Positions 20,401-51,291 of a DNA stretch of 64,000 nucleotides are shown piece by piece. The position numbers and the translations under genes are program-made. The notes below the pieces were generated by a model. That model was not told where the DNA came from, did no database searches, and was given only the letters and a program-made list of their open reading frames with translations. This stretch comes from an uncultured Gemmatimonadota bacterium (GTDB lineage Bacteria; JAAXHH01): contig OX638340.1 of the NCBI GenBank assembly GCA_951812955.1, forward strand, positions 3,104,001-3,168,000. Direction: 5' to 3'. Each line of letters starts with the position of its first letter. The stretch's first letter is position 1.

Positions 20401-21423
20401 TTAAGACGCTTCGAATACCTTGCCTATTTCATCCCGGTCGAAGGTTGGCAGATCGACGACCGCCCCGTCCCTCCTTATCCGGATTCCGTACCCGGGAGGT
20501 TCTATAGAGCCAATCACGGCGGCCGGAATGCCGGCTTCCGCGAGGCGGGCGGTCACCGGGTCCGCGCAGTCCGCATCTACCACGATGAGCAGCGCGCCCG
20601 ACGCGATGACGCCAAGGGGATCCAGGCCGTAGTACGAACAAAGGGCCTCCGATTCGGGCAACAGGGGCAGCCGGTCCTCCTCGATGAGCATGCCGACATC
20701 GGAAGCGACGGCGATTTCGCGAAGCCCCGAAGCGACTCCGCCCTCCGTCGGATCATGCATGGCGTGGACCCCTCCGGTTTCCATGGCGATGCGGGATTCA
20801 CGGACTACGCTGAGGCCGGGCCGCCGGAGGTACAGGCGGCACGTCTCGAGAAATTCGTCGGAGAAACGAGCCCTGACCTCGTCACTTTTTTCCATGGCGA
20901 TCAGCGCCGTCGCCTCGATGGCGATGCCCTTGGTAAGCAGGATACGGTCGCCCACCCTGGCGCCGGATCCGGTAACGTAGCCGTCGGGTGTCGTTTCCCC
21001 CAGCATCTGCCCGATCAGCAGCGGCCGGTCCAGACCGTGGGTGATTTCGGTATGGCCACCGGCGAGCGTGACGCCGAGTTCCCGGCACGCGTCGGACAAC
21101 CCGGAGAATATGCGGTCCACCAGATCGGGGTCCGTTTTCGCTTCCGGAAGCAGTATGGTCGTGAGGAACCACCGGGGCGCCGCGCCCATGGCCGCCACGT
21201 CGTTGGCGTTTATGTTGACGGCGTACCAGCCGATCTCTTCGGTGGCGAAGGTGATAGGGTCCGTTTTCGTCACGAGTACGCTGGAACCGAACGAAATCAC
21301 CGCCGCGTCCCGGCCGATGCCAGGACCCACGAGCATTCTCGGGTCGGAACTGGAAGCATAGCGTCGCAGTATGCGGTCCAGATCTTCCGCGGGCAGCTTG
21401 CCGACCGGGTAATAGGGAGGCAT
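20401..21423 (-). CDS. AIR-synthase-related (PurM/HypE/ThiL superfamily) protein
   Basis: ANDVAAMGAAPRWF resembles HypE ANDVAVSGAIPRY. The Gly/Cys-rich N-terminal loop of SelD is absent. The probable start is MPPYYPVGKL at 21423. Confidence 0.55.
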   Translation of the reverse strand: MPPYYPVGKLPAEDLDRILRRYASSSDPRMLVGPGIGRDAAVISFGSSVLVTKTDPITFATEEIGWYAVNINANDVAAMGAAPRWFLTTILLPEAKTDPDLVDRIFSGLSDACRELGVTLAGGHTEITHGLDRPLLIGQMLGETTPDGYVTGSGARVGDRILLTKGIAIEATALIAMEKSDEVRARFSDEFLETCRLYLRRPGLSVVRESRIAMETGGVHAMHDPTEGGVASGLREIAVASDVGMLIEEDRLPLLPESEALCSYYGLDPLGVIASGALLIVVDADCADPVTARLAEAGIPAAVIGSIEPPGYGIRIRRDGAVVDLPTFDRDEIGKVFEAS

Positions 21424-21530: not shown

Positions 21531-21833
21531 TTATTCCCGCCGCTTTCGCTGGGCGCGCAAAGCTTCTTTGAGTATCTTCCCCGGTTTGAACCTGGCTTTA
21601 CGCCTGGCCGGAACTTCGATGGTATACCCGGTCCGCGGATTGCGGGCCGCCGGCTTGGGGCGGGTATTCCTGATTTCCAGCGCGCCGAATCCCCGGATCT
21701 CGATCCGGTTCCCCTCGACCAGGTTCTCCCGCATGATCTCGAAGAGGGCGTCGATCACGGGATAGATCTGGGTCTTTTTGAGCCCCAGCGTCTCGCTGAT
21801 TTCATTGACCAGTTCCCTGCGCGTCGTCGTCAT
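21531..21833 (-). CDS. HU/IHF-family DNA-binding protein (IHF-beta-like)
   Basis: 100 aa with GFGALEIRNTRPKPAARNPRTGYTIEVPARRKARFKPGK, the beta-arm motif. Confidence 0.85.
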   Translation of the reverse strand: MTTTRRELVNEISETLGLKKTQIYPVIDALFEIMRENLVEGNRIEIRGFGALEIRNTRPKPAARNPRTGYTIEVPARRKARFKPGKILKEALRAQRKRRE

Positions 21834-22507
21834 TTAGGTTCCTCGGACCCGATGCCTTCGTTTCCGCCGGACAATCCCGCCCGACCGTACATGCGGCGCA
21901 ACTTGTCCACGTTCTCTTCGCCTATGGTATTGACCTGGCCGAGCATGCGCGCCACGAGGGTAATCCGTGCGCAGTGCTCCATGGTCTCCATCTTGTGATA
22001 CGCCGCAACGATGTCCGGACCCAGGGTCAGCGCGCCATGGTTTTCGAGCAGGACCGCGTCGTATTCCCGCACGTATTCCCGGAGCGATTCGACCAGCTCC
22101 ATGGTTCCCGGCGTCCCGTATGGCGCGATGGGGACATGTCCGAGGGAGACGATCACTTCCGGCAGCAGGTTGTCCGGCAGATTCACCCCGGCCACGGAAA
22201 ACCCCGTTGACGCCGGTGGATGGGCGTGGGCGACGGCGTGCACGTCCGGCCGTTCCCGATACACCATCAGGTGCATTTTCATCTCGGACGAAGGCTCGTG
22301 ACTTCCGGAGATCACCGCGCCGTCATAATCGACGACCACGAACTTATCCGGATCGAGGAATCCTTTGCTGACCCCGGTCATCGTGATCAGCAACCGGTCT
22401 TCGGACAGCCGAACGCTGAGGTTCCCGTCGTTCGAGGCCACGTACCCGCGGTCATACATCCGCTTGCCGACATGGATCACGTCGGATAGGACTTGATCAA
22501 GTTGCAA
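21830..22507 (-). CDS. Class II aldolase/adducin-family protein
   Basis: 225 aa with the aldolase_II N-terminus YDRGYVASNDGNLSVRL and HAHP metal ligands. Its stop overlaps the start of the HU gene by 4 bp. Confidence 0.75.
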   Translation of the reverse strand: MQLDQVLSDVIHVGKRMYDRGYVASNDGNLSVRLSEDRLLITMTGVSKGFLDPDKFVVVDYDGAVISGSHEPSSEMKMHLMVYRERPDVHAVAHAHPPASTGFSVAGVNLPDNLLPEVIVSLGHVPIAPYGTPGTMELVESLREYVREYDAVLLENHGALTLGPDIVAAYHKMETMEHCARITLVARMLGQVNTIGEENVDKLRRMYGRAGLSGGNEGIGSEEPK

Positions 22508-22605: not shown

Positions 22606-24072
22606 TTATAAGCCGGACCTTACAATACGCGCCACGTCGTGAATCCGGCTTTTCTCTACGCCCCGCATGTCGATCCGGACCCGGTCCCGGCCGCAATCGA
22701 CCAGCAGAGGAGGGGTCCCATTAAGCCACCGGTCCGCCAGGTCTTCGCCCCTGGACCCCGGCGCGCGAACCGAGACAGCGAAGCTGGGCATGGCGTGGAT
22801 GGGAAGGCGGTACGTGGTGAGATGCGACCGCTGTTCGACCACGGTACACTCCGCGCGGAATCGACAGTCTTCAGTCAGGCGTTCGAGCAACTGGCGGGCA
22901 CGGGCGCCTACCTCGTCCGGGGATGCGGCCAGCATGTGGGCCGCCGGGTGGTTCTCGAGGTCGCAGTCGCTCCCGGCCAGTTCCGCCAGACGCGCGTCGA
23001 GCCCCGCTCTCACGTGCCTGGAGGCCCGCGCCGCGGGCCACATGCCGTGCCCTCTAATGCGCGCCAGGATCCGGCGCTTTCCGATCAGCAGTCCGCAGGG
23101 GGGACCGCCAATCAGGCCTCCGCCGGCCGCGATGATCAACGGCGTGCCGTGCCGCACCGCTTCCGCGACGGAGCCCGCGGCCGGAAGCGCGGCGGAAGTG
23201 ACCGGGCGCAACGTCGTGTCGCCGGCCAGGTGAAGCACCTCGACGCCGGTGTCCGTACCGGTCCGTACGATCTCTTCCTGCGCGGGTTCTTCTGTGAAAC
23301 CTCGAAGGGCGCAGGTGGACGGGCGCGCCGTGACGATCAGCGCGGTGCGGTCACCTACGGCGCCAAGGTAGTCGGACACGCGGGTCTTGTTGGCGGCGCC
23401 GGCCTCTACCACGGCTGCGCCGGCCTGTCCACAGATCGACACCGGACTCAAAGGCCGCGCATCGTAAGGCGCATCGATCAGTCCAAGCTGGCTGCGGCCG
23501 AAGACGACTTCCGCACCTTCGGCGAGGGCCCGGATCGCCAGGAAGAAAGCGGCGCCGACCGAACGGCATACCAGTGCGTCCTCGGCGCCGGTCAATTCGC
23601 CAAGCAGGCCGGAGGCGCGGCCGTCATCGTCGTAAGCCGCGACCGTGAGCGACAGCCGCGAAGCCCTATCCGCGGCCTTCCCGGCAAACCGGTCCCGCGC
23701 CCGTGGATGGAAGAGGATGCCGGAGGCGTTGATCAGGTCCCCGGCCGTCGACCTGTCTTCCCGCTCCAGGAGCGCGGCGACTCGTCCCGCGAAGTGCTCC
23801 GACTCGAAACCGGCCGTCGACCTTTCTTCCCGCTCCAGGAGCGTGGCGACTCGTCCCGCGAAGTGCTCCGGCTCGAAACCGCCTGCTTCAGTCTCGGGAG
23901 GACGGAACCGGATCCGGTCCCGCGCGTCGCGCAGTACTTTCCGGATCGCGTTGTCGATCTGCCGGTCCTCGAACCGGCCGCGCAATGCCCCGACGCGGGG
24001 ATCGCGTTGCATCGCGCCCACGGAAGGCAGGAGGGCGAGCCAGGGCCTTAAGTCTTCGCGGCCTGGTCTCAT
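22606..24072 (-). CDS. selA: L-seryl-tRNA(Sec) selenium transferase (selenocysteine synthase)
   Basis: Collinear with E. coli SelA from LRPWLALLPSVG (cf. LYSQLPAIDRLL) through the PLP region. The start ATG at 24072 has a GGAGGAA RBS. The gene contains an in-frame 69-bp tandem duplication. Confidence 0.85.
   Translation of the reverse strand: MRPGREDLRPWLALLPSVGAMQRDPRVGALRGRFEDRQIDNAIRKVLRDARDRIRFRPPETEAGGFEPEHFAGRVATLLEREERSTAGFESEHFAGRVAALLEREDRSTAGDLINASGILFHPRARDRFAGKAADRASRLSLTVAAYDDDGRASGLLGELTGAEDALVCRSVGAAFFLAIRALAEGAEVVFGRSQLGLIDAPYDARPLSPVSICGQAGAAVVEAGAANKTRVSDYLGAVGDRTALIVTARPSTCALRGFTEEPAQEEIVRTGTDTGVEVLHLAGDTTLRPVTSAALPAAGSVAEAVRHGTPLIIAAGGGLIGGPPCGLLIGKRRILARIRGHGMWPAARASRHVRAGLDARLAELAGSDCDLENHPAAHMLAASPDEVGARARQLLERLTEDCRFRAECTVVEQRSHLTTYRLPIHAMPSFAVSVRAPGSRGEDLADRWLNGTPPLLVDCGRDRVRIDMRGVEKSRIHDVARIVRSGL
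23741..23878. repeat. In-frame 69-bp x2 direct tandem duplication inside selA (3 mismatches)
   Basis: Copy 1 is 23741-23809 and copy 2 is 23810-23878. They encode GFEPEHFAGRVATLLEREERSTA | GFESEHFAGRVAALLEREDRSTA. Confidence 0.85.
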
Positions 24073-24785
24073 GCGGGGATTCCTCCCCGGCCTACCGTCG
24101 CGAGCGCGGATTCCGTGCAGCGTCCGGTCGAGGGATCGCCGCCGGCCCGCAGCGCCCGTATCTCGCGGGCGACCCGGTCCAGATCGGCGGGCCGGTCCAC
24201 GTCGTGCCAGACCGGGAGCTCGTGGCACGTAAGACCGCTTGCCCGGATTGCCGCCCGAGTCTGGCGCAACACGCGGCCTGTGCCCCAATGGATGGAGTCG
24301 AACAGCCTGGCGCAACGGCATGCGACCTTCACGCCGCGTCTCATGCCGATCAGGTAATACCCGCCGTCCTCGGCAGGTCCGAGCACAACGTCGTGCCGGT
24401 CGAGCGACTCGAAAGCCTCTTCGACGTAAGCGCGGGGCAGGAGGGGGCTGTCTCCACCCAGCACGACGGTCTTGTCCCATTCATTCTGCAAGAACTCCGC
24501 GAAGGCGTTCGACAGCCGTTCCCCGAGATGACCACCTCGCTGGCCGGTCCATATCACGTCCGGATCGCCGAGGGCGGACCGGAGATCCGCCAGTCCGTCT
24601 TCGGGCGCCCAGGCAACGTAGAGGGACGCGCTGGCGATCCCTTGCGCAATATGGAGCGTGTCCAGGATGAAGGCGCGGTAGAGTGCCGCCGCCGCACCGG
24701 GTGAGACCCGCGCCGTCAACCGGGTTTTCACCGTCCCGGGTCTCGGGGCTTTCATGAACAGGACGAGTGCGTTCGACATGGACAT
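24069..24785 (-). CDS. DUF2064 / TIGR04282-like nucleotidyltransferase-fold protein, translationally coupled to selA
   Basis: The start MSMSNALVLFMKAPRPGTVKTRL...LYRAFILDTL matches my recall of the DUF2064 family. The TGA stop and the selA ATG overlap as ATGA. Confidence 0.5.
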   Translation of the reverse strand: MSMSNALVLFMKAPRPGTVKTRLTARVSPGAAAALYRAFILDTLHIAQGIASASLYVAWAPEDGLADLRSALGDPDVIWTGQRGGHLGERLSNAFAEFLQNEWDKTVVLGGDSPLLPRAYVEEAFESLDRHDVVLGPAEDGGYYLIGMRRGVKVACRCARLFDSIHWGTGRVLRQTRAAIRASGLTCHELPVWHDVDRPADLDRVAREIRALRAGGDPSTGRCTESALATVGRGGIPA

Positions 24786-25084
24786 GTGCTGGACGTTACA
24801 GGGAAGACAGGTTCCGCCCGGGGGCGGCAAGGCATTGAACCGATGCGTTGCGAGGCAACCCATGCATACTACCTGGCGGCTCGTGACGTGTCAATTAAAA
24901 CCCCTGTTTATCAACCAGTTAACCCGATTTCCATCAGCTCGGGAACAACAATAAGACTTGACATTAAGGGTACTTGAAGGTTATTTTCGGCCTTTCTTGC
25001 CGGGCGCCGGCCTTCCCCGATACATAAGGACCGGAGCCCGTTAAAGACGAGCCGCCTGGCGGCGCCGGGTCCGATCCATGGAAG

Positions 25085-26156: not shown

Positions 26157-26981
26157 ATGATACTCATTACGCGAAAAACCCGTTTCTCGGCGGCCCATCT
26201 GTGCCACGACCCGCAGTGGCCGGAGGCCAGGAACAGGCGGGTGTACGGAACCTGCGCCGTCGGCACCGGCCACGGTCACGACTACGAGGCCGAATTCACT
26301 TTCGGAGGACCAGTCGATCCCCGGACCGGCGTGGTCCTGAACCTGACCGAGGTCAAGCGGCTGATCCACGCCGTGATCGAGCCGCTGGATCTGAGCCATC
26401 TGAACCACGACCACGCCGCCCTGGAGGGTCCGGCTCCGACGAGCGAAAGACTCGTCCGGTACCTCTGGCACGCGCTGGAAAGCGGTACCGGGCGGTGCGA
26501 GCTTACGCGCATCCTGCTCCATGAAAGCCGCGCGAGAAGTATCGAATACACTGGAGACGACAGCATGGTCCTTGTCACGAGAAGCGTAGAGTTCAACGCC
26601 GCCCACCGTCTGCACAGTATTAAGTTGAGCGACGAAGAGAACGTGCGTATATTCGGCAAGTGCAATAACCCGCACGGCCACGGCCACAATTATGAACTCG
26701 CGGTGACGGTCCGCGGCCCGGTAGACGAGAAGACCGGGATGGTCATCGACATGGGACGTTTCGATGAGATCCTCCAGAAGGAAGTCGTGGATCGTTACGA
26801 TCACCGGCACCTGAACCGGGACCTGGAGGAATTCAGGACGGTCAATCCGACCTCGGAGGAGATGCTACGCGTTATCTGGGCGCGGCTGCTTCCCTTTTTC
26901 GATTCCCCATCCCTGTACAGGATTCGCCTGGTGGAAACGTCCAAGAACGCTTTCGAGTATTTCGGAGAAGAGGACCGGTAA
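26157..26981 (+). CDS. queD: Bimodular 6-pyruvoyl-tetrahydropterin synthase / QueD-like protein (two tandem PTPS domains)
   Basis: Both halves carry the Cys-x5-HGH motif ([11 protein letters not shown] and [11 protein letters not shown]) and the zinc-ligand His. 274 aa is about twice a canonical QueD. Confidence 0.75.
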
Positions 26982-26986
26982 CCACG

Positions 26987-27550
26987 ATGGATCCTATCGA
27001 GGGATTGACAAGGTCACTGCTCGCCGAAATCGGCGAGAACCCGGACCGGGACGGTCTCAGGCGGACGCCCCGCCGCGTAGCGGAATCCCTGCGGTTTCTG
27101 ACACAGGGCTACGAAAAAAGCATTGAAACCGTTATTAATAACGCTATCTATGAAGAGGACTACGATGAGATGGTACTGGTGAAGGACATTGAGTTCTTCT
27201 CGCTGTGTGAGCACCACCTGCTGCCGTTTTTCGGCCAGTGCCATATCGCCTACATACCCAACGGCAAGATAATCGGACTCGGCAAAGTCCCCCGCATCGT
27301 GGACGTCTTCTCGCGGCGTCTGCAGTTGCAGGAGCGCCTGACCTTCCAGATCGCCCAGACCCTGCAGACCTGGCTCGACCCCCTCGGGGTGGCGGTTGTC
27401 ATGGAAGCGGGCCATCTCTGCATGATGATGCGCGGCGTGGAGAAACAGCACTCCAAGGCGACGACGAGCGCCATGCTCGGCGTATTCCGGGACGATCGCG
27501 CCACGCGGATGGAATTTCTCGATCTGACCCGGTCGAAGCACGGCGGGTAA
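26987..27550 (+). CDS. folE: GTP cyclohydrolase I
   Basis: [32 protein letters not shown]-like core. 187 aa. Confidence 0.93.
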
Positions 27551-35183: not shown

Positions 35184-35888
35184 ATGAGAACCATCCGTGT
35201 TTTCATCGATGCGATGATCCTGTTGATCCGGTCGCGCCGCGACCAGGACTATCACCGAGCCCGTTCGATCATCGCCCAGACCTGGGAAGACATATTCGGC
35301 CTGTCCACGGCGTCCGTCATGGCGCTGTCCGAACGCACCCTGCTTTCCATGTTGATGAAACGAAGTGGAGGGGCTGTAGACACCGCGCTGATGGCCGCGC
35401 GCCTGTTCAAGGAAGATGGAACGCTGGCCCTGTCGGACGGACAGGAGGACGACGGCCGCATCCTGTACCTCAAGGCCCTCAACTGTTACCTTGAAATCGC
35501 CGTGGAACCGACCATCGGCACGGAAGACTTTCGCTGGATCAGCGAAGACATAAGCTCCACCGGTCTCGTAACGGACCCCCACGAAGCGATCGGCGAACTG
35601 CTGGGTCTCCTCGAGAACGCGGATCTGCCCGTGTCTACTTCGATGCTGCTGTTCAGGTACTTCGAACGGTATGGCAAGTACGCCAGGGCCGAAGACATCC
35701 TGTTTCAAGTCATGGACGGTATCCCGGCCGTGCCTGAAATCGCCCGACTCGGCCTCGCGTTCTACGATCGGCTTGAATCCATGGGGGACGACTGCCTGGA
35801 ACGGGGCGGACTGCCCCGCGATGAGGTCCGTGAAGGACGGGAACAACTGAGGCAACGGATACACCGCGCCGGGTATGTTTTTGATTGA
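35184..35888 (+). CDS. Hypothetical helical protein
   Basis: The ORF has a good codon pattern, an amphipathic helical composition and no recognised motifs. The overlapping minus-strand ORF 35052-35864 is judged spurious. Confidence 0.35.
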   Translation: MRTIRVFIDAMILLIRSRRDQDYHRARSIIAQTWEDIFGLSTASVMALSERTLLSMLMKRSGGAVDTALMAARLFKEDGTLALSDGQEDDGRILYLKALNCYLEIAVEPTIGTEDFRWISEDISSTGLVTDPHEAIGELLGLLENADLPVSTSMLLFRYFERYGKYARAEDILFQVMDGIPAVPEIARLGLAFYDRLESMGDDCLERGGLPRDEVREGREQLRQRIHRAGYVFD

Positions 35889-35950
35889 CGGTACCGCGCC
35901 GGACTTATAGATTAGCGGAATCTGAAAAACCTGTAAGAAGACGGGGATTT

Positions 35951-37330
35951 ATGGTCACGGAAAGCACGGACAGGATAGTCCTGGAACCACCCGCGCCGTC
36001 TGCCGCGGTACAGGCGCGATCGCTGTACGTGGAGACCTACGGCTGCCAGATGAATAAGGCGGATTCCGAGTTGATCGTGGGGCTGCTCACACGCGAGGGG
36101 TACCGCGTAACCGACCGGGTCGACCGGGCCGACGTGATCCTGGTAAACACCTGCGCCATTCGTGAGAACGCGGAGCAGCGGGTACTCGGGCGCATGTCCG
36201 AACTGAACCGGTTCAAGACGGCCAATCCCGACCTGATCCTGGGACTCTGCGGTTGCATGTCCCAACACCTCGGCGACCGGATCATCGAGCAAGCACCCTA
36301 TATCGACCTGGTCGCGGGTCCCGACAATTACCGGCGCCTGCCGACCATGCTTCGAGCACTGGACGCGGAAAGCGAACCGGCGCTGAGCCTGACCTGGGAC
36401 CGGGCCGAACACTATCTCGACATCGATCCCGTCAGGGAAGCCGGCGTAAACGGCTGGGTTACGATCATGCGCGGCTGCGACAAGATGTGCGCCTTCTGCA
36501 TCGTTCCTTTCGTGCGCGGCCGGGAGCGCAGCACGCCCCACGGCGAAGTGATCCGCCAGATCGAGCGCCTCGCGGCGGAAGGATACCGGGAAGTAACGAT
36601 GCTCGGCCAGACGGTGAACAAGTACCGGGACGGCGAGGTCGACTTCGCGGACCTGCTTTCCCGGGCGGCGGAAATCGACGGCATCGCGCGCATCCGGTTC
36701 ACATCGCCCCACCCGGCACATTTCCCGGAACGTTTGATCGAGGTCATGGCGGCTTCCCCGAAGGTCTGTCCCCATACGCACCTTCCGCTGCAGTCCGGCG
36801 CGTCGACGACCCTGTCCCGCATGCGGCGGGACTATACCCCGGAAACGTTTCTTGAGGTGGTCCGCATGCTCCGGGAGCACATTCCCCGGATCGCCCTGAC
36901 GACGGACGTCATCGTGGGATTCTGTGGCGAGACGGAAGAAGAATACGAGGCGACCTGCGAGATGATGCGCACCGTGCAGTTCGACAGCGCTTTCATGTTC
37001 AAGTATTCTCCGCGCCCAGGGACGGCTTCCCATAAACGGCTGCCCGACGACGTGCCCGAAGCTGTAAAGGCCGAAAGGCTGACAGCCATCATCGACATGC
37101 AGAAATCGATCTCCGATCTCCGGAACCGTGCGTACAGGGGACAGATCGTGCATGTGCTTGTAGAGGGCCAGTCCAAACGCGACGCAGATAAGCTCTTCGG
37201 CAAGACGGACGCCTTCAAGACCGCCGTGTTTCCCCGGAGGCCGGGCATCGAATCCAACATGATCGTTCCCGTGCGCGTCAACGGTTCCACACCCTTCACG
37301 CTGTTCGGAGACATCGAAACGCCGGCATAG
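35951..37330 (+). CDS. miaB: tRNA-2-methylthio-N6-dimethylallyladenosine synthase MiaB
   Basis: The MTTase N-terminal domain (LYVETYGCQMNKADSE) is followed by a radical-SAM CxxxCxxC motif (CDKMCAFCIVP) and a C-terminal TRAM domain. Confidence 0.9.
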   Translation: MVTESTDRIVLEPPAPSAAVQARSLYVETYGCQMNKADSELIVGLLTREGYRVTDRVDRADVILVNTCAIRENAEQRVLGRMSELNRFKTANPDLILGLCGCMSQHLGDRIIEQAPYIDLVAGPDNYRRLPTMLRALDAESEPALSLTWDRAEHYLDIDPVREAGVNGWVTIMRGCDKMCAFCIVPFVRGRERSTPHGEVIRQIERLAAEGYREVTMLGQTVNKYRDGEVDFADLLSRAAEIDGIARIRFTSPHPAHFPERLIEVMAASPKVCPHTHLPLQSGASTTLSRMRRDYTPETFLEVVRMLREHIPRIALTTDVIVGFCGETEEEYEATCEMMRTVQFDSAFMFKYSPRPGTASHKRLPDDVPEAVKAERLTAIIDMQKSISDLRNRAYRGQIVHVLVEGQSKRDADKLFGKTDAFKTAVFPRRPGIESNMIVPVRVNGSTPFTLFGDIETPA

Positions 37331-43392: not shown

Positions 43393-44401
43393 CTAGGTGC
43401 CGTCGGGGTAGACAAGGCGGGTTATTCGGCTAGACAGATCATGGACGTATGTGAACGTCTTGTCACCGGTCAGGCCGTCGATTTCGACCTGCTTGACGCG
43501 CACGTTGCCGAGATGGTCGTAGGCGTACAGGTAGCTGACCTCGGCGGCCGGGTCAGCGTCGGTATTCTCCTCGACCTTTGCAAGGCGCCCCTGGGCGTAG
43601 TTGGGACCGCCACCCGCGATGGCATCGTTGTCTGCGGCATCGCCGTCGTCGTAGGTCATGCGGCTTCGCCACGAGGTGTTGTCGCGTTCGAAGGGGTAGG
43701 TTGCTCTCCGGATCGAGGGAGGCGAACGTGGCCGTCGCCTCGCCCACGCGCGTTACGCGGCCGAAGTCGTCGTAGATTTTGAAGGTGATTTTCTCGGTGG
43801 CGTTGCCCGTGCCTGCAGCCTTCTGCCGCGTGTCCTGTGAAAAACGCACGCGGCCCAGGTCGTCGTACTTGTAGCGGACAGGTCCGTCGGCATCGGGGTG
43901 ATGCCTGGAGGTCATGCGCCCCAGGGTGTCGTAGGCATAGCGCGAGGTGCCGCCGCCCGGCATGGTTGTCGAGACGAGGCGGTCCAGGGCGTCGTAGACA
44001 AAGGACGTTTTGTTGTTCCTGGTGGCGGCACTCGTACCCGCCGAGTCGGCTATGGCATAGCGCATGCGTCCATAGGCGTCGTAGACGCTGGTGGTCAGGA
44101 CCCCCTTTTCGTCGTCTACAGTCCGAAATGAGCGTCCCTGGCCGGACTCGATACCCCAGTTCCCGTAGCGTGAATCGACCGCGTTATCCTGTGTATGCCC
44201 GGGCGGTATGACGCGGGAGACCCTCAGCAGGGGGTCGTCGTCGTAGGAGACTTGAGTGATGCGTTCTGCCGCGTCTGCGCTGGCCAGGGCGCCGTAGGTA
44301 TGCGAAGGCGACAGGTACGCGGGTCCGAGCAGCGTATCGGGTTTATTGACGCGGTTGTAGTTCGTCTGGGTGACGATGTCGTTTGCGCCGGCTCGACGCA
44401 T
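43393..44401 (-). pseudogene. Rhs/YD-repeat gene fragment (displaced, frameshifted, truncated; no C-terminal tip)
   Basis: Two overlapping-frame ORFs (43553-44401 and 43393-43659) are homologous to residues about 1590-1990 of the large Rhs protein. A premature stop follows YPDGT. Confidence 0.75.
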
Positions 44402-45002
44402 GCAGCAGAAGATGCACCGACTGGGCTATGGATTGGAACCTCGATGCCAGCCTGACCCTGAATGTTATGGACTACAAACCACTGGCCGAATTCGAACGGA
44501 GGTTAACACGCATTAAGACAGTAGCTTAACTACTTGTCCCATTTTTGGGTGCACTACATGTCATTGCCATATACACGCCTGAAGGTCCGCAACGTGATCC
44601 CCTTGTTGGTAGGACCGCCGGGGTCGTTGGGATGATCTACGTATCCACCCTCATGGACTAATACATGTTCGAGGGATGGGGAGAAATTGGGTTTCATATT
44701 GGTTTCTGAATCCCTTTCGGTGGTGTGTTCTGCATTTGTTTAACCTCTGGTTACCTACACAGATGGTGTTTATAGTGCATTTCCCTCATTTATCACAGTT
44801 CCCGCTCATATGCAAACTCGCACACACCAATTCCCTTTGGGAAGGAGTTGATCGACGTTAACCGATCTTCTCAAAATTCGAACATGGAGGTCAGGCCAAC
44901 TTCATCGCATTAACGTCAGAAATACGTTTTTAACCGAAATACCAGATTCGGACTGTCGCATCTGGTATTTCGGAAATAAATGATAGGTATGAAAGTTCGA
45001 AG

Positions 45003-45326
45003 TTATAAGTCTATTAAGCCAAAAAGACGGAAAAAGCTGATTAGGTTGAAGAAAAAAGTACCAATTCCTGTTGTTACGATTAAAATTTTGGTACCTATGT
45101 CCTGTTTATCCCAGTGCTTTATGTCCTTCCAATAGGATAACATAACTAAATTGGCTATCACAGTTACTGTATAGATTGTATCTAACCCATACGCATCTAT
45201 AATGTCACCAAGGTATTCTGACAGAGTCTCCTTAGTATCCCGATAAGGGTTCCCACCGCTCCAAATGCTCCTAAGCAAAACTATCACCCCTACCAATGCC
45301 AGCACTCTACTTACTAATTTCGTCAT
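45003..45326 (-). CDS. Small 3-TM membrane protein, candidate immunity protein for the orphan-2 Rhs tip
   Basis: 107 aa with three hydrophobic helices. GC is clearly low for this genome (AT-rich by eye), and it lies 30 bp downstream of the rhs module stop. Confidence 0.5.
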   Translation of the reverse strand: MTKLVSRVLALVGVIVLLRSIWSGGNPYRDTKETLSEYLGDIIDAYGLDTIYTVTVIANLVMLSYWKDIKHWDKQDIGTKILIVTTGIGTFFFNLISFFRLFGLIDL

Positions 45327-45355
45327 CTAATGTATTTCCTAGGTTGTAGGGTTGC

Positions 45356-47644
45356 TTAGCGCTCATCGTCATCTGGAATAACCGTTTTTGCTGCTTCCTT
45401 CGCCGTATCGTACGATCCACCCTTCCGATCCGATACGAATTCTCCAGTCTTGGCATCACGATATCTCGGTCCGGTGCCATTAAAAGACGTAGGTTTTATT
45501 CTAAGCCTCGAAATGACATTTAACGTTCTCGAGGTTACCATGTTTAATAAGGTAGCCCTAATTTGGTCTGTGGCTCTTTGGGATGAGCCTTCGAAAAACA
45601 GGGCATCTGCTGTTAGTGCAAACGTTTTTGTTATATCTGCACCTGTACCTATAACTGCCGAGGCTCTTACAGAGCCTAACGATCCTGCCGTTATAAAAGG
45701 ATTCCCTGAAACCAAACCCGCACCGGCACCAACTAAACCACCAGCCACACCGTAATCTGCTCCTGCCGAAACAGCATCGCTAGCTACAATGCTAGTCTGT
45801 ATAGCTTCCTGGATCGCGTCTACTGCAGCAAACCTTAATGTACGAATCTCCGATGCTATTTTTGCATAGAGGTAGTGATGCGGCTCATGATGGCTATTTC
45901 CATCCGGATCCACATACTTGAGCGGATTGTTGTTGGCATAGGCATAGGGGCTCAATCCCGGGTACTCGCCCTGCATGGGATCGGGTCTTAAGAACCTGCC
46001 TATATCGTTAGCGTACGACCTTGCGAGCATGTAGTCAAGGCCGGACTCTGAGTCTCTCTCGTGCCCGGTGAACCGGAAATGCGTGGAACCCGTGCCACTC
46101 AATGCCAAAACCTTGCCGTAGGGCCAGTAGTCGTAGATGGCGGTGACTGTGCCTTCCTCATCCACGAGGCTTCTGGTGCTTCCGAGATGATCGGTCAGGT
46201 AGTAGCTTGCGCTACTTCCTGCTATCCGCGCTATTCTTCTGCTGCCCGCGTACACGTACCTTGCAGATAGCATCTGGCCTGAGTATTCGGCGAGTACGCT
46301 GCCGTCCGCTCCCCGCAGGTAGTAGGTGACGGCCGTTCCGACGGTTTTCTTCACGCGCCGTCGGTCCGGATCCATGAGATACCGTGCGCTGCCGTAGCCG
46401 GTGGTAAGCCCGCGGTAGTCGTAGCTCACCGTATCGGCGCCCCTTCGCGTCATCCACCCGTTTTGGTTGTAGGCGTAGATCTGCCCTCCCGTGCCGGTCG
46501 TGCTGTCCAGCCTGTTGGGTGTGGAGGATGCCGAGTAGTTGTAGGTGAGCGTGGTAGTACCTGTGACCAGGCTGGTGATATTGCCGTTCCTGTCGTAGGC
46601 GTAATCCTGCGAGGCACCGCCCGACGCGTCGAAGCCGGTGATCCGGTACAGGTCGTCGTAGGCGTAGTCCGCGGTCTTGGACGCCGCGGTGCCGTGCCGG
46701 TACACCTGCCTGGTGACGTTGCCCACGTGGTCGTAGGTGAGCGTAGACCTGAACGTGCCTGCATAGTTCAGGTCGGTGACCCATTCCCGCGCGTTGTAGG
46801 TGTAGGATCCGGTGATGGCGCCGTCTCCCGCGCCATCTCCCACTCCGTCGCCCACGGTGTGGGTGGCGATATTGCCCGCTGCGGTGTGGGTGTAAGCGAC
46901 CAGGGTCTTGCCTTGCGCATCCCACACGCGGCTGAGCCGCCCGGCGCTGTCGTAGGCGTAGCGCGCCTGGCTGCCGTCGGGGTAGATCAGGCGGGTTACG
47001 CGCCCGGCCAGGTCGTGGAGGTATGTGAGCGTCTTGTCGCCGGCCAGGCCGTCGATTTCGACCTGCTTGACACGCACGTTGCCGAGATGGTCGTAGGCGT
47101 AATGATGGATGACCTCGGTCGCCGCATCCGCGTCGGTATTCTCCTCGACGTTGGTCAGGCGCCCCTGGGCGTAGTTGGGCCCGTCGCCTGCGGCATCGCC
47201 GTCGTCGTAGGTCATGCGGCTGCGCCAGGAGGTGGCATCGGTCTCGAAGGGGTAGGTGCTATCGGGATCGAGGGAGGCGAACGTGGCCGTCGCCTCGCCC
47301 ACGCGCGTTACGCGCCCGAAGGCATCGTACACGGTGTAGGTAACCTTGCCGGTGCCGGCAGCGCGCTGCCGCGCGTCCTGTGAAAAACGCACGCGGCCCA
47401 GGTCGTCGTACTTGTATTGCGTGGCCCCGTCGGCATCGGGGTGATGCCTGGAGGTCATGCGCCCCAGGGTGTCGTAGGCATAGCGCGAGGTGCCGCCGCC
47501 CGGCATGGTGGTCGAGGTGAGTCGGTCCAGGGCGTCGTAGGCGAAGGATGTTTTGTTGTTGCGGGTAGCAGCGTCCGTGCCCGCCGAGTCGGCTATGGCA
47601 TAGCGCATGCGGCCGTAGGCGTCGTAGACGCTGGCGGTTGCCAC
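45356..47644 (-). CDS. Orphan Rhs-repeat module (core 3' part + DPxG junction + distinct Gly-rich hydrophobic C-terminal toxin tip); lacks N-terminus and start
   Basis: YD repeats are collinear with the large Rhs gene, and nucleotide homology extends to about 47840. The junction is ...NNPLKYVDPDGNSHHEPHH. The tip is about 200 aa with a GVAGGLVGAGAGLVSGNPFITAGSLG segment. Confidence 0.85.
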   Translation of the reverse strand: MATASVYDAYGRMRYAIADSAGTDAATRNNKTSFAYDALDRLTSTTMPGGGTSRYAYDTLGRMTSRHHPDADGATQYKYDDLGRVRFSQDARQRAAGTGKVTYTVYDAFGRVTRVGEATATFASLDPDSTYPFETDATSWRSRMTYDDGDAAGDGPNYAQGRLTNVEENTDADAATEVIHHYAYDHLGNVRVKQVEIDGLAGDKTLTYLHDLAGRVTRLIYPDGSQARYAYDSAGRLSRVWDAQGKTLVAYTHTAAGNIATHTVGDGVGDGAGDGAITGSYTYNAREWVTDLNYAGTFRSTLTYDHVGNVTRQVYRHGTAASKTADYAYDDLYRITGFDASGGASQDYAYDRNGNITSLVTGTTTLTYNYSASSTPNRLDSTTGTGGQIYAYNQNGWMTRRGADTVSYDYRGLTTGYGSARYLMDPDRRRVKKTVGTAVTYYLRGADGSVLAEYSGQMLSARYVYAGSRRIARIAGSSASYYLTDHLGSTRSLVDEEGTVTAIYDYWPYGKVLALSGTGSTHFRFTGHERDSESGLDYMLARSYANDIGRFLRPDPMQGEYPGLSPYAYANNNPLKYVDPDGNSHHEPHHYLYAKIASEIRTLRFAAVDAIQEAIQTSIVASDAVSAGADYGVAGGLVGAGAGLVSGNPFITAGSLGSVRASAVIGTGADITKTFALTADALFFEGSSQRATDQIRATLLNMVTSRTLNVISRLRIKPTSFNGTGPRYRDAKTGEFVSDRKGGSYDTAKEAAKTVIPDDDER

Positions 47645-48367
47645 GCCCTTCTCATCGTCTACGGTCCGGAACGACCGTCCCTGGCCGGACTCGGTGCCCC
47701 AGTTCCCGTAGCGTGAATCGACCGCGTTATCCTGTGTATGCCCGGGTGGTATGACGCGGGAGATCCTCAGCAGGGGGTCGTCGTCGTAGGTGGTCTGGAT
47801 GATGCGTTCTGCAGCGTCTGCGCGGGCCAGGGCGCCGTAGGTATGCTAGGCGGCCGGTGCACAGACCTGAGGACGTGCTTGGGAAGGCTCGTCCGGTTGT
47901 ATCTCGATCGGGCTTCTACATCGCCGGCGCCAGACCCAACTCTGGTCTGTATACAGAGCGCCAGGGTCTATAATCCGCCTGGTACAGTATCAGCCACATA
48001 GGCGAAGTCTGTTGCACAGAACAAGACATCGTCGGTCCACCAATGGTCATGACCGGCCGTATCATTACGGACAGACCGACCTATGAGACTGTATAGAGGC
48101 ACACCGAGGTCGTTTATGATGTTCTGATGTTTTCATTTGTGAGCCTTCTGCATTTACTCTCAACTGACCACCGACAAAAGTGAAACCGGGCTTGCCACGA
48201 CACCTGATCTACCAAAACAGTGGGTTTAGCCAGACCGGAAGAATCCATTGAGTACGGTACCTATAAAACAACTCTGTCCTTGCTTCAAAATAACACAGGA
48301 CCTGGACAAGCTGCGTTCCTATCAACAGCAGGCAACAACCTGTCCAGGAACCCGGCATATACCCAAC

Positions 48368-49036
48368 CTATTGCGGAAAATGTCGTTGATCGAACGTGAC
48401 GGACCAACTCCCTTCTGCCCAACTTTTTGGCGATAGCTTGACTGTTGTATCATTGATCCACTGCAATGCACCAAAGTACTTATCAAATACAAACTCGTCA
48501 GGCATATCCGTAACAACAAGGACCCTGTCTAGAATCTCTTTGGAACGGTTTCTGAGCTGGATGTAAATCCGGATCTCTTCGATTTCGTGTTCGACGAAGA
48601 CCTCGGCGACAAGGCGCCTTCCATTTCTCCACCAGACGCGTTTCCGCCAGGTCCACTGATTCACAAAGTTAAGGTCCAAGACCGCTTGCCGGGCTTTCTC
48701 GTATGGCTCAATGTCCCATCCATAAGCCCGCGTCACGATCTCGATGCCCCGGAATAACCAATTCAATGCCTTGTGTTTCTTCTCATATGCGCTGAGTTCA
48801 AAGAAGGCCAATGGATCATCCTTGATTTGTAGCTCGAGACATCCAAGCATGTCTAGTACATTCTGCCTTTTTGGCTGTGGCACGATAAAGACCGATATCT
48901 TCCATGCTTTTCCTGACTCACGAGGTGGTGTGAAATGCCTCTGGAACAAGGCGAGTACTGATCGTGTCTCATTTACAAATCGATGACTAGTCCACCACTC
49001 TAGTTTGGGTGCGTATAGACCAAACTGTCTTATCAT
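48368..49036 (-). CDS. Low-GC cytoplasmic protein, candidate immunity protein for the orphan-1 Rhs tip
   Basis: 222 aa with no signal or TM segment. It lies 26 bp downstream of the rhs tip, and its GC is far below the genome background. Confidence 0.45.
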   Translation of the reverse strand: MIRQFGLYAPKLEWWTSHRFVNETRSVLALFQRHFTPPRESGKAWKISVFIVPQPKRQNVLDMLGCLELQIKDDPLAFFELSAYEKKHKALNWLFRGIEIVTRAYGWDIEPYEKARQAVLDLNFVNQWTWRKRVWWRNGRRLVAEVFVEHEIEEIRIYIQLRNRSKEILDRVLVVTDMPDEFVFDKYFGALQWINDTTVKLSPKSWAEGSWSVTFDQRHFPQ

Positions 49037-49061
49037 GATTTCTCCTGGGGTTGGACTTCGG

Positions 49062-50918
49062 TCAGGGTTGCTGCTGCCTAATTAACTTTTGTCCTTCACT
49101 ACGCAATCGGTCCGAAGCTGCCTTCTCGGCCTCAAGCGCGGCCTGTCGCCCCGGAACATCGGTTTCAACTATCCGTGCCGAATAGGTTCCAGCCCCCTCT
49201 TGGCGGTTGAACGCATTTACCTGCGTGTTCGCACGGGGTGATGTACCGTCTACGTTAAGCGGCCTACCACTGATTCCCGTTTTGACCACATCACCAGTTT
49301 CTGTGTTGTAGATTTCGTATCGATGTTGCGGCTTGGTACTGAGTTTCGAGTTACCATGAATCGCGCTTCTAGCAGCGTCCGCCGCGTCGGCGCCTTGATC
49401 TGCCGCACGAGTTCCTCGTAGTACTTTAATGAGCGTACCGGCACCACCTGGCACGCCTGGAGCAATGGTTGCCGCCACATCCACGACGAGGCCGACCGCA
49501 TCAAGTGCTGCCCAACCGTAACTGCCCTAGCGGATATTCTGAGCCAGCGACGCCGCACCAATCCCGATGTTGACGACATCCCAGATTGTCTCGGCGGCTC
49601 TTCCATCCGGATCCACATACTTGAGCGGATTGTTGTTCGCATAGGCATATGGACTGATCCCCGGATACTCGCCCTGCATGGGATCGGGCCGCAGGAACCT
49701 GCCGACATCATAAGCGTACGACCTTGCGAGCATGTAGTCAAGGCTGGACTCTGAGTCTCTCTCGTGGCCGGTGAACCGGAAGTGCGTTGAGCCGGTGCCG
49801 CTCAAGGCCAGAACCTTGCCGTAGGGCCAGTAGTCGTAGGCGGCGGTGACGGCGCCTTCCTCATCCACGAGGCTTCTGGTGCTTCCGAGATGATCGGCCA
49901 GGTAGTAACTTGCGCTGTCTCCCGCTATTCGGGCGATCCGCCTGCTGCCGGCGTACACGTACCTGGCAGAGAGCGTCTGACCCGAGTATTCGGCCAGGAC
50001 GCTGCCGTCTGCGCCGCGCAGGTAGTAGGTGACGGCGGTCCCGACGGTCTTCTTCACGCGCCGTCTGTCGGGATCCATGAGATACCGTGCGCTGCCGTAG
50101 CCGGTGGTAAGCCCGCGGTAGTCGTAGCTCACCGTATCGGCGCCCCTTCGCGTCATCCACCCGTTGGGGTTATAGGCGTAGATCTGCCCTCCCGTACCGG
50201 TGGTGCTGTCCAGCCGGTTGAGTGTGGAGGCGGACGTGTAGTTGTAGGTGAGCGTACTGGTACCTGTGACCAGGCTGGTGATATTTCCGTTCCTGTCGTA
50301 GGCGTAGTCCCGGCTCGCGCTGCCCGACACGTCGAAGTCCGTGATCCGGTACAGGTCGTCGTAATCGTAGTCCGCGGTTATGGACGCGGCGCTGCCGTGC
50401 CGGTGCACCTGCCTGGTGACGTTGCCCGCGGGATCGTAGGTGAGCGCGGACTTAAACTTACCCGCATAGTTCAGGTCGGTGACCCATTCCCGCGCGTTGT
50501 AAGTGTAAGCACCAATGACGATGCCGTCTCCCGCGCCATCTCCCACTCCGTCGCCCACGGTGTGGGTGGCGATGTTGCCCGCTGCGGTATGGGTGTATGC
50601 TGCCAGGGTTTTGCCTTGCGCATCCCACACGCGGCTGAGCCGCCCGGCGCTGTCGTAGGCGTAGCGCGCCTGGCTGCCGTCGGGGTAGATCAGGCGGGTT
50701 ACCCGCCCAGCCAGGTCATGGACGTATTCCAGCGTCCTGGCGCCGGTGAGGCCATCGATGGTCACCTGCTTGACGCGCACGTTGCCCAGGTGATCGTAGG
50801 CGTAGAGGTGGGTGACCTCGGCGGTCGCGTCGACGTCGGTGTTCTCCTCGACTTTGGTCAGACGCCCCTGGGCGTAGTTGGGTCCGCTGGAGACGGCATC
50901 GCCGCCGTCGTAGGTCAT
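49062..50918 (-). pseudogene. Orphan Rhs-repeat module with distinct C-terminal tip interrupted by an in-frame TAG (49527-49529)
   Basis: ORFs 49527-50918 and 49062-49484 are in the same frame, separated by a single amber codon 20 aa after the DPDGR junction. The tip contains ...AIHGNSKLSTKPQHRYEIYNTETGDVVKTGISGRP... Confidence 0.7.
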
Positions 50919-51291
50919 GCGGCTGCGCCAGGAGGTGTTGTCGGGGTGACGCGGATGAGGCCGTGTTTACTCGGAGTAATTGGGCTTGCTAGGAGCGGAT
51001 AGTGAGTAAAGCACTTACCTAGTATGTCGCCTTTGCATGCGACGGGTCCAATCCGACCGGCTACCGTTGCGTCGAAGGCGGCCTGAAGCCACTCAGTCGT
51101 TCAGCCTTGTCCTAAATTGTCAGCATGATTTGCTGAGATTGGTTTTCTTGATTCTCTACAACAAATGTCTGACGCTCAATTCTCATTGTAGCATCTGTCT
51201 ATCCAACGTAGCAACTATGAACTCCATCGAATAAACCATTCAAACATCCAAGCCGACGTACCTACAGGACATTGTTAGTCCGTTCAGAAGC

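Follow-up and report, generated by a model that had tools for sequence, protein, structure and literature searches.

Is a selA-like gene that stands apart from other selenocysteine (Sec) genes, and that carries an in-frame tandem duplication, still the gene of a selenocysteine synthase, and if not, what has it become? The question is raised by a 64,000-nucleotide stretch of DNA from an uncultured Gemmatimonadota bacterium (contig OX638340.1, positions 3,104,001 to 3,168,000; "the window" below means this whole stretch), in which a preliminary description had named a selA gene overlapping a DUF2064-like gene. Our reading, to which we give a probability of roughly 60%, is that the gene belongs to a clade of SelA-derived pseudoenzymes, that its product is translationally coupled to the DUF2064 protein and is likely its non-catalytic partner, and that its 69-bp repeat is natural and varies in number without inactivating the gene. 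The features concerned are collected in Table 1.

A SelA-like protein with an altered active site

The 488-residue product is matched by the Pfam SelA family (PF03841, E 5.9e-44), and its alignment to the SelA equivalog model TIGR00474 spans model positions 4 to 453 with a score of 189.1 bits, under the cut-off of 267.9. An AlphaFold model of the protein, with a predicted local distance difference test score (pLDDT) of 71 and a predicted template-modelling score (pTM) of 0.53, gave SelA of Aquifex aeolicus as its top Foldseek match (3w1h_A, E 1e-30) and also matched Escherichia coli SelA (8uzw), both over the full length and with template-modelling (TM) scores of 0.6-0.78. The N-terminal helices reach a pLDDT of ~80, and the LPSV motif near the N-terminus is invariant in the family. 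In true SelA, the N-terminal domain recognises tRNA(Sec). By sequence and model, the window protein keeps the fold-type-I architecture of SelA, N-terminal domain included, and RNA binding by that domain is a putative function; PF12390 matches the proteins of a sister group (group B, below) and not the window protein. An exact-sequence look-up returned no record for this protein, nor for a 264-residue form of the DUF2064 protein (P0314).

Nearly all catalytic residues are gone. Residue roles (Schiff base, contacts to pyridoxal 5'-phosphate (PLP), selenophosphate-binding site) follow PMC4607533, which summarises Itoh et al., and the A. aeolicus numbering was rebuilt on an alignment of 47 family members, 14 sister-group proteins and 67 other SelA sequences; a second alignment to A. 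aeolicus SelA was made with the 149 representatives of 50%-identity clusters that had scored best in a profile search. Based on the phmmer alignment to 8UZW and 3W1H, the PLP motif SGDKLLGGPQAG is replaced by AGGGLIGGPPCG in the window protein, SGDK having become AGGG. The Schiff-base lysine (K285 in A. aeolicus, K295 in E. coli) is glycine in all 47 family members, as is D284, and S282 is alanine in all of them; D247, in our inference the aspartate that partners the pyridine nitrogen in fold-type-I enzymes, is leucine in 46 of the 47, and N218 is threonine in 45. A 10-residue deletion has removed the RGSR loop that bears R119. Among the arginines of the selenophosphate site, R312 has become proline, R315 is glutamine in most members or else arginine, and R86 is replaced by D, G, E or N. 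Of 126 lysine-containing SelA representatives, 124-126 keep each of R86, R119, N218, D247, D284, R312 and R315; for R86, R312, R315 and the positioning residue R119 the count is 125-126. Since these residues are missing, the window protein cannot be a selenocysteine synthase or make selenocysteinyl-tRNA, and the name selA, taken as that of a functional gene, has to be withdrawn.

It could be objected that the gene is a bona fide selA after all, its active-site differences being misalignment or sequencing error and its duplication an assembly artefact, and the Pfam match, the full-length TIGR00474 alignment and the name "L-seryl-tRNA(Ser) seleniumtransferase", which JGI gives to some relatives, would suit that view. 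However, the same substitutions were recovered by phmmer, MAFFT and profile alignments and recur in 47 independent sequences, the score lies under the equivalog cut-off, NCBI labels the relatives "hypothetical protein", and the repeat copies differ at three sites and number one to three in independent assemblies. We regard this reading as almost certainly wrong.

The protein does not stand by itself. In a word-indexed search, 47 homologues were found at 50-94% identity, followed by a drop to <=33% for ordinary SelA; the named ones read "hypothetical protein [Gemmatimonadetes bacterium]". When one genome per GTDB species was scanned, 22 loci of this family came up (group A; L003-L024), all from metagenome-assembled genomes labelled Gemmatimonadetes/Gemmatimonadota, Latescibacterota or plain "bacterium", and the isolate names (APA_bin, IRC1_bin, SB0665, Plut) suggest sponge and coral hosts or symbionts. 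In a full profile search, six more distant proteins (P0066-P0071, at 283-403 bits) scored below this family and above the plateau of true SelA; with eight others found besides, they make up group B. At 37-48% identity, its members carry GDG at the motif site and share the other losses. Group C comprises 27 further SelA-like genes on metagenome contigs, found by a DNA-pattern scan for the GDG motif, and ten more lysine-less representatives occur in P0072-P0139, a subset of the 150 best profile hits. The lysine is absent from 23 of the 149 realigned cluster representatives. A neighbour-joining tree united groups A and B and one Latescibacteria protein in one clade and group C with a fourth group, D, in another, and left undecided whether the lysine was lost once or twice.

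Some lysine-less SelA-like genes lie on Planctomycetes-like metagenome contigs (L110, L144, L121, L079, L083, L113 and L148). Upstream of them is a gene for a small signal-peptide protein ending in ...TI(T/N)EWM(A/S)QDR(V/I)EP; downstream of these group C genes is a tail-specific protease (S41) or, in L148, an ArfB-like RF-1-domain protein.

The rebuilt site might also be read as a gain, the SelA scaffold having been reused for a PLP-independent reaction through the GGGLIGGPPCG loop, in a pathway with the DUF2064 transferase. The new motif, together with FHP, RPSTxALRGF and LTxYRLP, is invariant or nearly so within the family, the pocket-forming loop is the best-conserved stretch of the protein, and the gene is coupled to that of an enzyme. 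However, groups A, B, C and D do not agree at the replaced positions (G, R, Q, L, D or E at 285, and free variation at 247, 312 and 315), which argues against a shared new catalytic site. The conserved cysteine of GGPPCG was considered as the mark of a new active site and rejected, since a cysteine in GGPxCG is also present in 19 of 67 (~28%) true SelA sequences and is serine in some group B proteins. We think new chemistry rather unlikely.

Whether the gene is maintained at all can be judged from its substitutions. None of the 30 loci of groups A and B has a broken SelA-like open reading frame (ORF), and Nei-Gojobori ratios of nonsynonymous to synonymous substitution (dN/dS) between the window gene and five relatives are 0.27-0.39; the DUF2064 gene gives 0.22-0.28, and nine neighbours give 0.00-0.36. 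The gene is weakly but clearly constrained. Its dN is the highest among 11 neighbouring genes, and in L022 its identity is 39% against 62-87% for the neighbours; the degenerate loop AAGGGLIGGPPCG is invariant within the window family. As for Sec decoding, the preliminary description had noted no selB, selD or selenoprotein gene in the window, and our scans agree: a tRNA search of the 64 kb found no tRNA and hence no tRNA-Sec there, no Rfam family was matched, and the window ORFs (44 of 46 predicted ones were covered by the Pfam scans) include no SelB, no SelD above cut-off, no formate dehydrogenase, no glycine reductase and no typical selenoprotein family.

Such a gene could be a decaying relic, an orthologous selA drifting towards a pseudogene after loss of the Sec trait, with the duplication and the fast evolution as signs of lost constraint. 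This would account for the missing catalytic residues, the missing Sec machinery in the window, the highest dN of the 11 genes and a dN/dS above that of most neighbours, and an orphan selA left after trait loss has a precedent in H. pylori (PMC4607533). Against decay stand a dN/dS of ~0.3 and not ~1, an unbroken ORF in 30 loci and in 47 homologues, at identities as low as 39%, repeat changes that are all in frame (69 and 18 bp), a former active-site loop that is invariant in its new form, and a preserved start/stop overlap, so that we consider it very unlikely. A dN/dS of ~0.3 therefore speaks for a pseudoenzyme and not a relic; the loss of conserved catalytic residues combined with purifying selection places the protein within the sequence-based definition of that class.

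A coupled DUF2064 gene

The upstream gene had been described as DUF2064-like, and the hidden Markov model search proposed for it has now been run: the product scores 189.7 bits against TIGR04282 (cut-off 134) and matches PF09837 (DUF2064) with an E value of 1e-29, with a weak match to CofC. The reported ATGA coupling is real as well, the TGA stop of the DUF2064 gene falling inside the ATGA at the SelA-like start. This overlap is kept in 27 of 30 related loci, as a 4-bp (A/G)TGA in 25 and as an 8-bp overlap in two, both of group B; among the remaining three, the two genes of L022 are separated by a 2-nt spacer, and the values for L012 and L017 were taken from the starts of partial tblastn matches. 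In one sublineage (L005 9144-10004 and P0322-P0328) the DUF2064 protein is longer, with 283-305 residues, and only ~58% of the window protein aligns to it, which points to an insertion or to divergence of the C-terminal half; this ORF, too, is intact, and its end still overlaps with the start of the SelA-like gene (GTGA).

Two sigma-70 consensus matches were found where 0.5 were expected. With a promoter candidate upstream (Table 1) and a 98-bp AT-rich spacer after the SelA-like stop, the pair therefore looks like a two-gene operon; a divergent promoter candidate for nrnA lies at 24958-24987.

No DUF2064 neighbour was found at 35 true-SelA loci or at the lysine-less genes on Planctomycetes-like contigs. 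The pairing has been stable while groups A and B diverged to 37-48% identity, and it is specific to these two groups. Outgroup members of TIGR04282, at 38-46% identity, occur with a radical SAM protein with DUF3641, with a GT2 gene and in one case with gatAB, and never beside a SelA homologue. The window gene thus resembles those at loci annotated as "arsenosugar biosynthesis glycosyltransferase" in passing the family cut-off and in its 38-46% identity, and differs from the radical-SAM (ArsS-like)/GT2 loci in lacking the canonical partners and having a SelA-like protein in their place: ArsS-type radical SAM (DUF3641) and TIGR04283 GT2 genes were sought in the window and not found, its lone radical-SAM gene (35885-37327) being MiaB-like.

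We know of no experimentally established function for TIGR04282/DUF2064. A literature search of incomplete coverage found nothing on "DUF2064" and only incidental mentions of "TIGR04282", and the conserved coupling provides a concrete, testable partner. Because translational coupling is conserved, co-function as a complex is the simplest reading. With the SelA architecture retained and the PLP lysine, PLP contacts and selenophosphate arginines gone, the SelA-like protein would be translated, from a two-gene operon, in coupling with the nucleotidyl-/glycosyl-transferase-like TIGR04282/DUF2064 protein and would serve that transferase as a non-catalytic partner, either a scaffold or a substrate-binding subunit, possibly one that binds RNA or tRNA. 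A bolder version would make the clade a widespread, unrecognised family of RNA-/tRNA-binding pseudoenzymes; in the Gemmatimonadota/Latescibacterota lineages the SelA-derived ring or N-domain would recognise the substrate for the coupled DUF2064 (GT-A/CofC-like) transferase, the two proteins would form a new tRNA-/RNA-directed nucleotidyl- or glycosyl-transfer system, and the repeat would tune the reach of the N-domain; this we think distinctly unlikely.

Several points weigh against a non-catalytic partner of the DUF2064 protein. The two-protein complex is a prediction. With no DUF2064 gene beside the Planctomycetes-like lysine-less genes and no SelA homologue beside outgroup TIGR04282 members, the pairing is lineage-specific and does not account for what the family does in general. 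The lineages that supply the loci are related and have the flanking housekeeping genes in common as well, so the conservation of the pairing may in part be inheritance and not selection. In dN the SelA-like gene ranks first among the 11, so that its constraint is weak. The AlphaFold model is of moderate confidence, and of low confidence over the repeat. Finally, the clade is apparently, and provisionally, undescribed: no account of a lysine-less SelA was found in a literature whose coverage was incomplete.

The 69-bp tandem repeat

The duplication had been announced as perfect, in frame and 69 bp long. The frame and the length hold; direct comparison of the two units finds exactly three mismatches (at 23755, 23775 and 23802), as the body of the preliminary description itself says. 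With 66 of 69 tandem bases identical, the match is far beyond chance, and Tandem Repeats Finder reports a period of 69, 2.0 copies, 95% matches and 0 indels. Each unit amounts to 23 codons in frame in the minus-strand ORF, and the two encode GFEPEHFAGRVATLLEREERSTA and GFESEHFAGRVAALLEREDRSTA directly before GDLINASG, that is, within the helical segment ahead of the INA(S/T)G strand, where they had been placed. The unit corresponds to residues ~49-70 of A. aeolicus SelA and duplicates the last N-domain helix and the start of the N-linker; AlphaFold predicts helices at 68-89 and 91-109, with low confidence.

To the question whether the duplication is tolerated, recent or an artefact, the relatives answer that it is tolerated and real. 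In independent assemblies the unit occurs, always at one and the same nucleotide position, once (L001, L004), twice (the window, L003, L061) or three times (L060), and an assembly artefact is excluded by this recurrence and by the three internal differences. Units differ by 2-6 nt within one genome and by 4-14 nt between genomes, where the rest of the gene predicts 3-5.5 per 69 nt; it follows that the copies either undergo homogenisation or are generated anew time and again, and that this segment changes at about double the rate of the remaining gene. L001, with its single copy, does not branch outside the multi-copy genes, so copy number has either both risen and fallen or risen several times.

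Repeats of another kind occur nearby. In the sublineage L010-L016, 18-bp units in 2-4 copies encode EADGFA-like hexapeptides ~10 codons upstream (nt ~177-250 of the SelA-like gene), and the segment is a hot spot for in-frame tandem repeats that tolerates changes of length. Slippage or unequal recombination would have produced the 69-bp repeat in a helix that lies between N-domain and core and tolerates changes of length, and the repeat would expand and contract among close relatives with no inactivation of the gene. The series of one, two and three copies is a clear natural case of in-frame repeat length variation in a bacterial protein linker. Separately, the SelA-like gene of L013 contains, at nt 1272-1319 and close to the C-terminal domain, a 24-bp unit that is repeated perfectly (x2).

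Gene neighbourhood and related SelA-type systems

Table 1. Features of the SelA-like locus, in window coordinates
Feature	Position	Strand	Remarks
AIRS-family gene	20401-21423	(-)	starts MPPYYPVGKLP...
Class II aldolase gene	21830-22507	(-)	sole remnant of a PVM-like microcompartment operon
SelA-like pseudoenzyme gene (putative)	22606..24072	(-)	488 aa; SelA fold and N-terminal domain, catalytic residues lost
Codons A316-G317-G318-G319	23116..23127	(-)	stand in for PLP-binding S282-G283-D284-K285 of A. aeolicus SelA
Two tandem 69-bp units	23741..23878	(-)	first in gene orientation 23810-23878, second 23741-23809; residues 66-88 and 89-111
ATGA start/stop overlap, DUF2064 gene / SelA-like gene	24069..24072	(-)	translational coupling
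TIGR04282 / DUF2064 transferase gene (CofC-like, GT-A type)	24069..24785	(-)	238 aa
Candidate sigma-70-like promoter, TTGACA-17-TAGTAT	24866..24894	(-)	~80 nt upstream of DUF2064 start; consensus match only

In group A the gene order is FolE, PTPS, NrnA (on the opposite strand), DUF2064, SelA-like, class II aldolase, HU, AIRS-family, Smg/DUF494, TopA and XerC; it is identical in 23 of 24 loci, L017 lacking the aldolase. In group B the aldolase and HU are set apart by a microcompartment operon of 7-9 kb with acetate kinase, PduL, BMC-H, three BMC-P proteins and aldehyde dehydrogenase, a composition that fits the PVM/PVM-like type of PMC4207490 and PMC8217296; neither of these catalogues mentions SelA or DUF2064. 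The group B aldolases (L062 2438-3283, L063 8491-9306, L065 6396-7211) have a C-terminal amphipathic tail of the encapsulation-peptide kind, and this tail of ~50 residues (..DLIQRITREVVSRLR..) is missing from the window aldolase. Since the operon is present in the sister lineages, the window lineage has deleted its organelle genes.

This bears on the AIR-synthase-related gene that the preliminary description had pointed out two genes from selA, next to its remark on co-function. Its position stands; of a shared function this tells nothing, because the microcompartment operon intervenes in group B and the gene lies only two genes from the pair because that operon was deleted. In groups A and B it is always found between HU and smg-topA. 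The AIRS protein falls under every curated cut-off (107 against 184 for thiL, 107 against 252 for hypE and 98 against 125 for selD) and keeps the SelD-like lysine position with no cysteine before it; a link between this ThiL/HypE/SelD-like gene and the SelA-like gene was thus considered and rejected.

Beyond nrnA and divergent from the operon lie a two-domain PTPS/QueD-like gene (26157-26981, plus strand) and a GTP cyclohydrolase I gene (26987-27550, plus strand), an arrangement kept in all related loci. Farther away, a cluster of RHS-repeat proteins occupies 43553-60287 on the minus strand, including a 2430-residue ORF (52995-60287). With its small ORFs at 48368-49036 and 52167-52979, which have a third-position GC content (GC3) of ~0.5 against ~0.77 elsewhere and no Pfam match, it looks like a polymorphic toxin/immunity region.

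Compared with true SelA (A. aeolicus 3W1H, E. coli 8UZW; TIGR00474, PF03841), the window protein shares the domain order of N-terminal domain, N-linker, core and C-terminal domain, together with the motifs LPSV (N-terminal), INA(S/T)G, TGAED, E-G-(A/T)-(A/T)-N-K-T and GGP, and the family keeps D199 of the dimer-dimer interface. Unlike SelA, it has lost K285, D284, S282, D247, N218 and R312, has a 5-residue insertion after the FRIP-equivalent segment, and has no sel genes around it in the window.

SelA homologues outside Sec decoding have been described in H. pylori, in Frankia, in a DgaE-like lineage and as MJ0158, and they lack the N-terminal tRNA domain (Cravedi et al., PMC4607533). Like the SelA of H. 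pylori/H. acinonychis and of Frankia, the window gene is under purifying selection with a raised dN/dS (~0.3 here, 0.24 in H. pylori), and like them it has no other sel genes near it, within the 64-kb window in our case. In its residues it is the reverse: SelA of H. pylori/H. acinonychis retains each of Lys285, Arg86, Arg312 and Arg315 (PMC4607533), whereas the window clade keeps the N-terminal domain and loses the catalytic lysine and the arginine set. DgaE (TIGR01437, 7LC0), MJ0158 (2AEU) and Cap15 (8T7J) have a SelA-like core of fold type I in common with the window protein, but they are much more distant and PLP-dependent, and DgaE and MJ0158 are without the N-terminal domain; the window protein scores 18.6 bits against TIGR01437, for which the cut-off is 385.

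The known non-Sec derivatives of SelA have thus dropped the tRNA-binding domain and kept the PLP chemistry. This clade has done the reverse, which implies that selection can act on the scaffolding or binding role of SelA alone. In addition, the Pfam SelA matches of its members can cause false "selenocysteine-using" calls in metagenome surveys, and the SGDK lysine together with R86, R312 and R315 separates them cleanly from true SelA.

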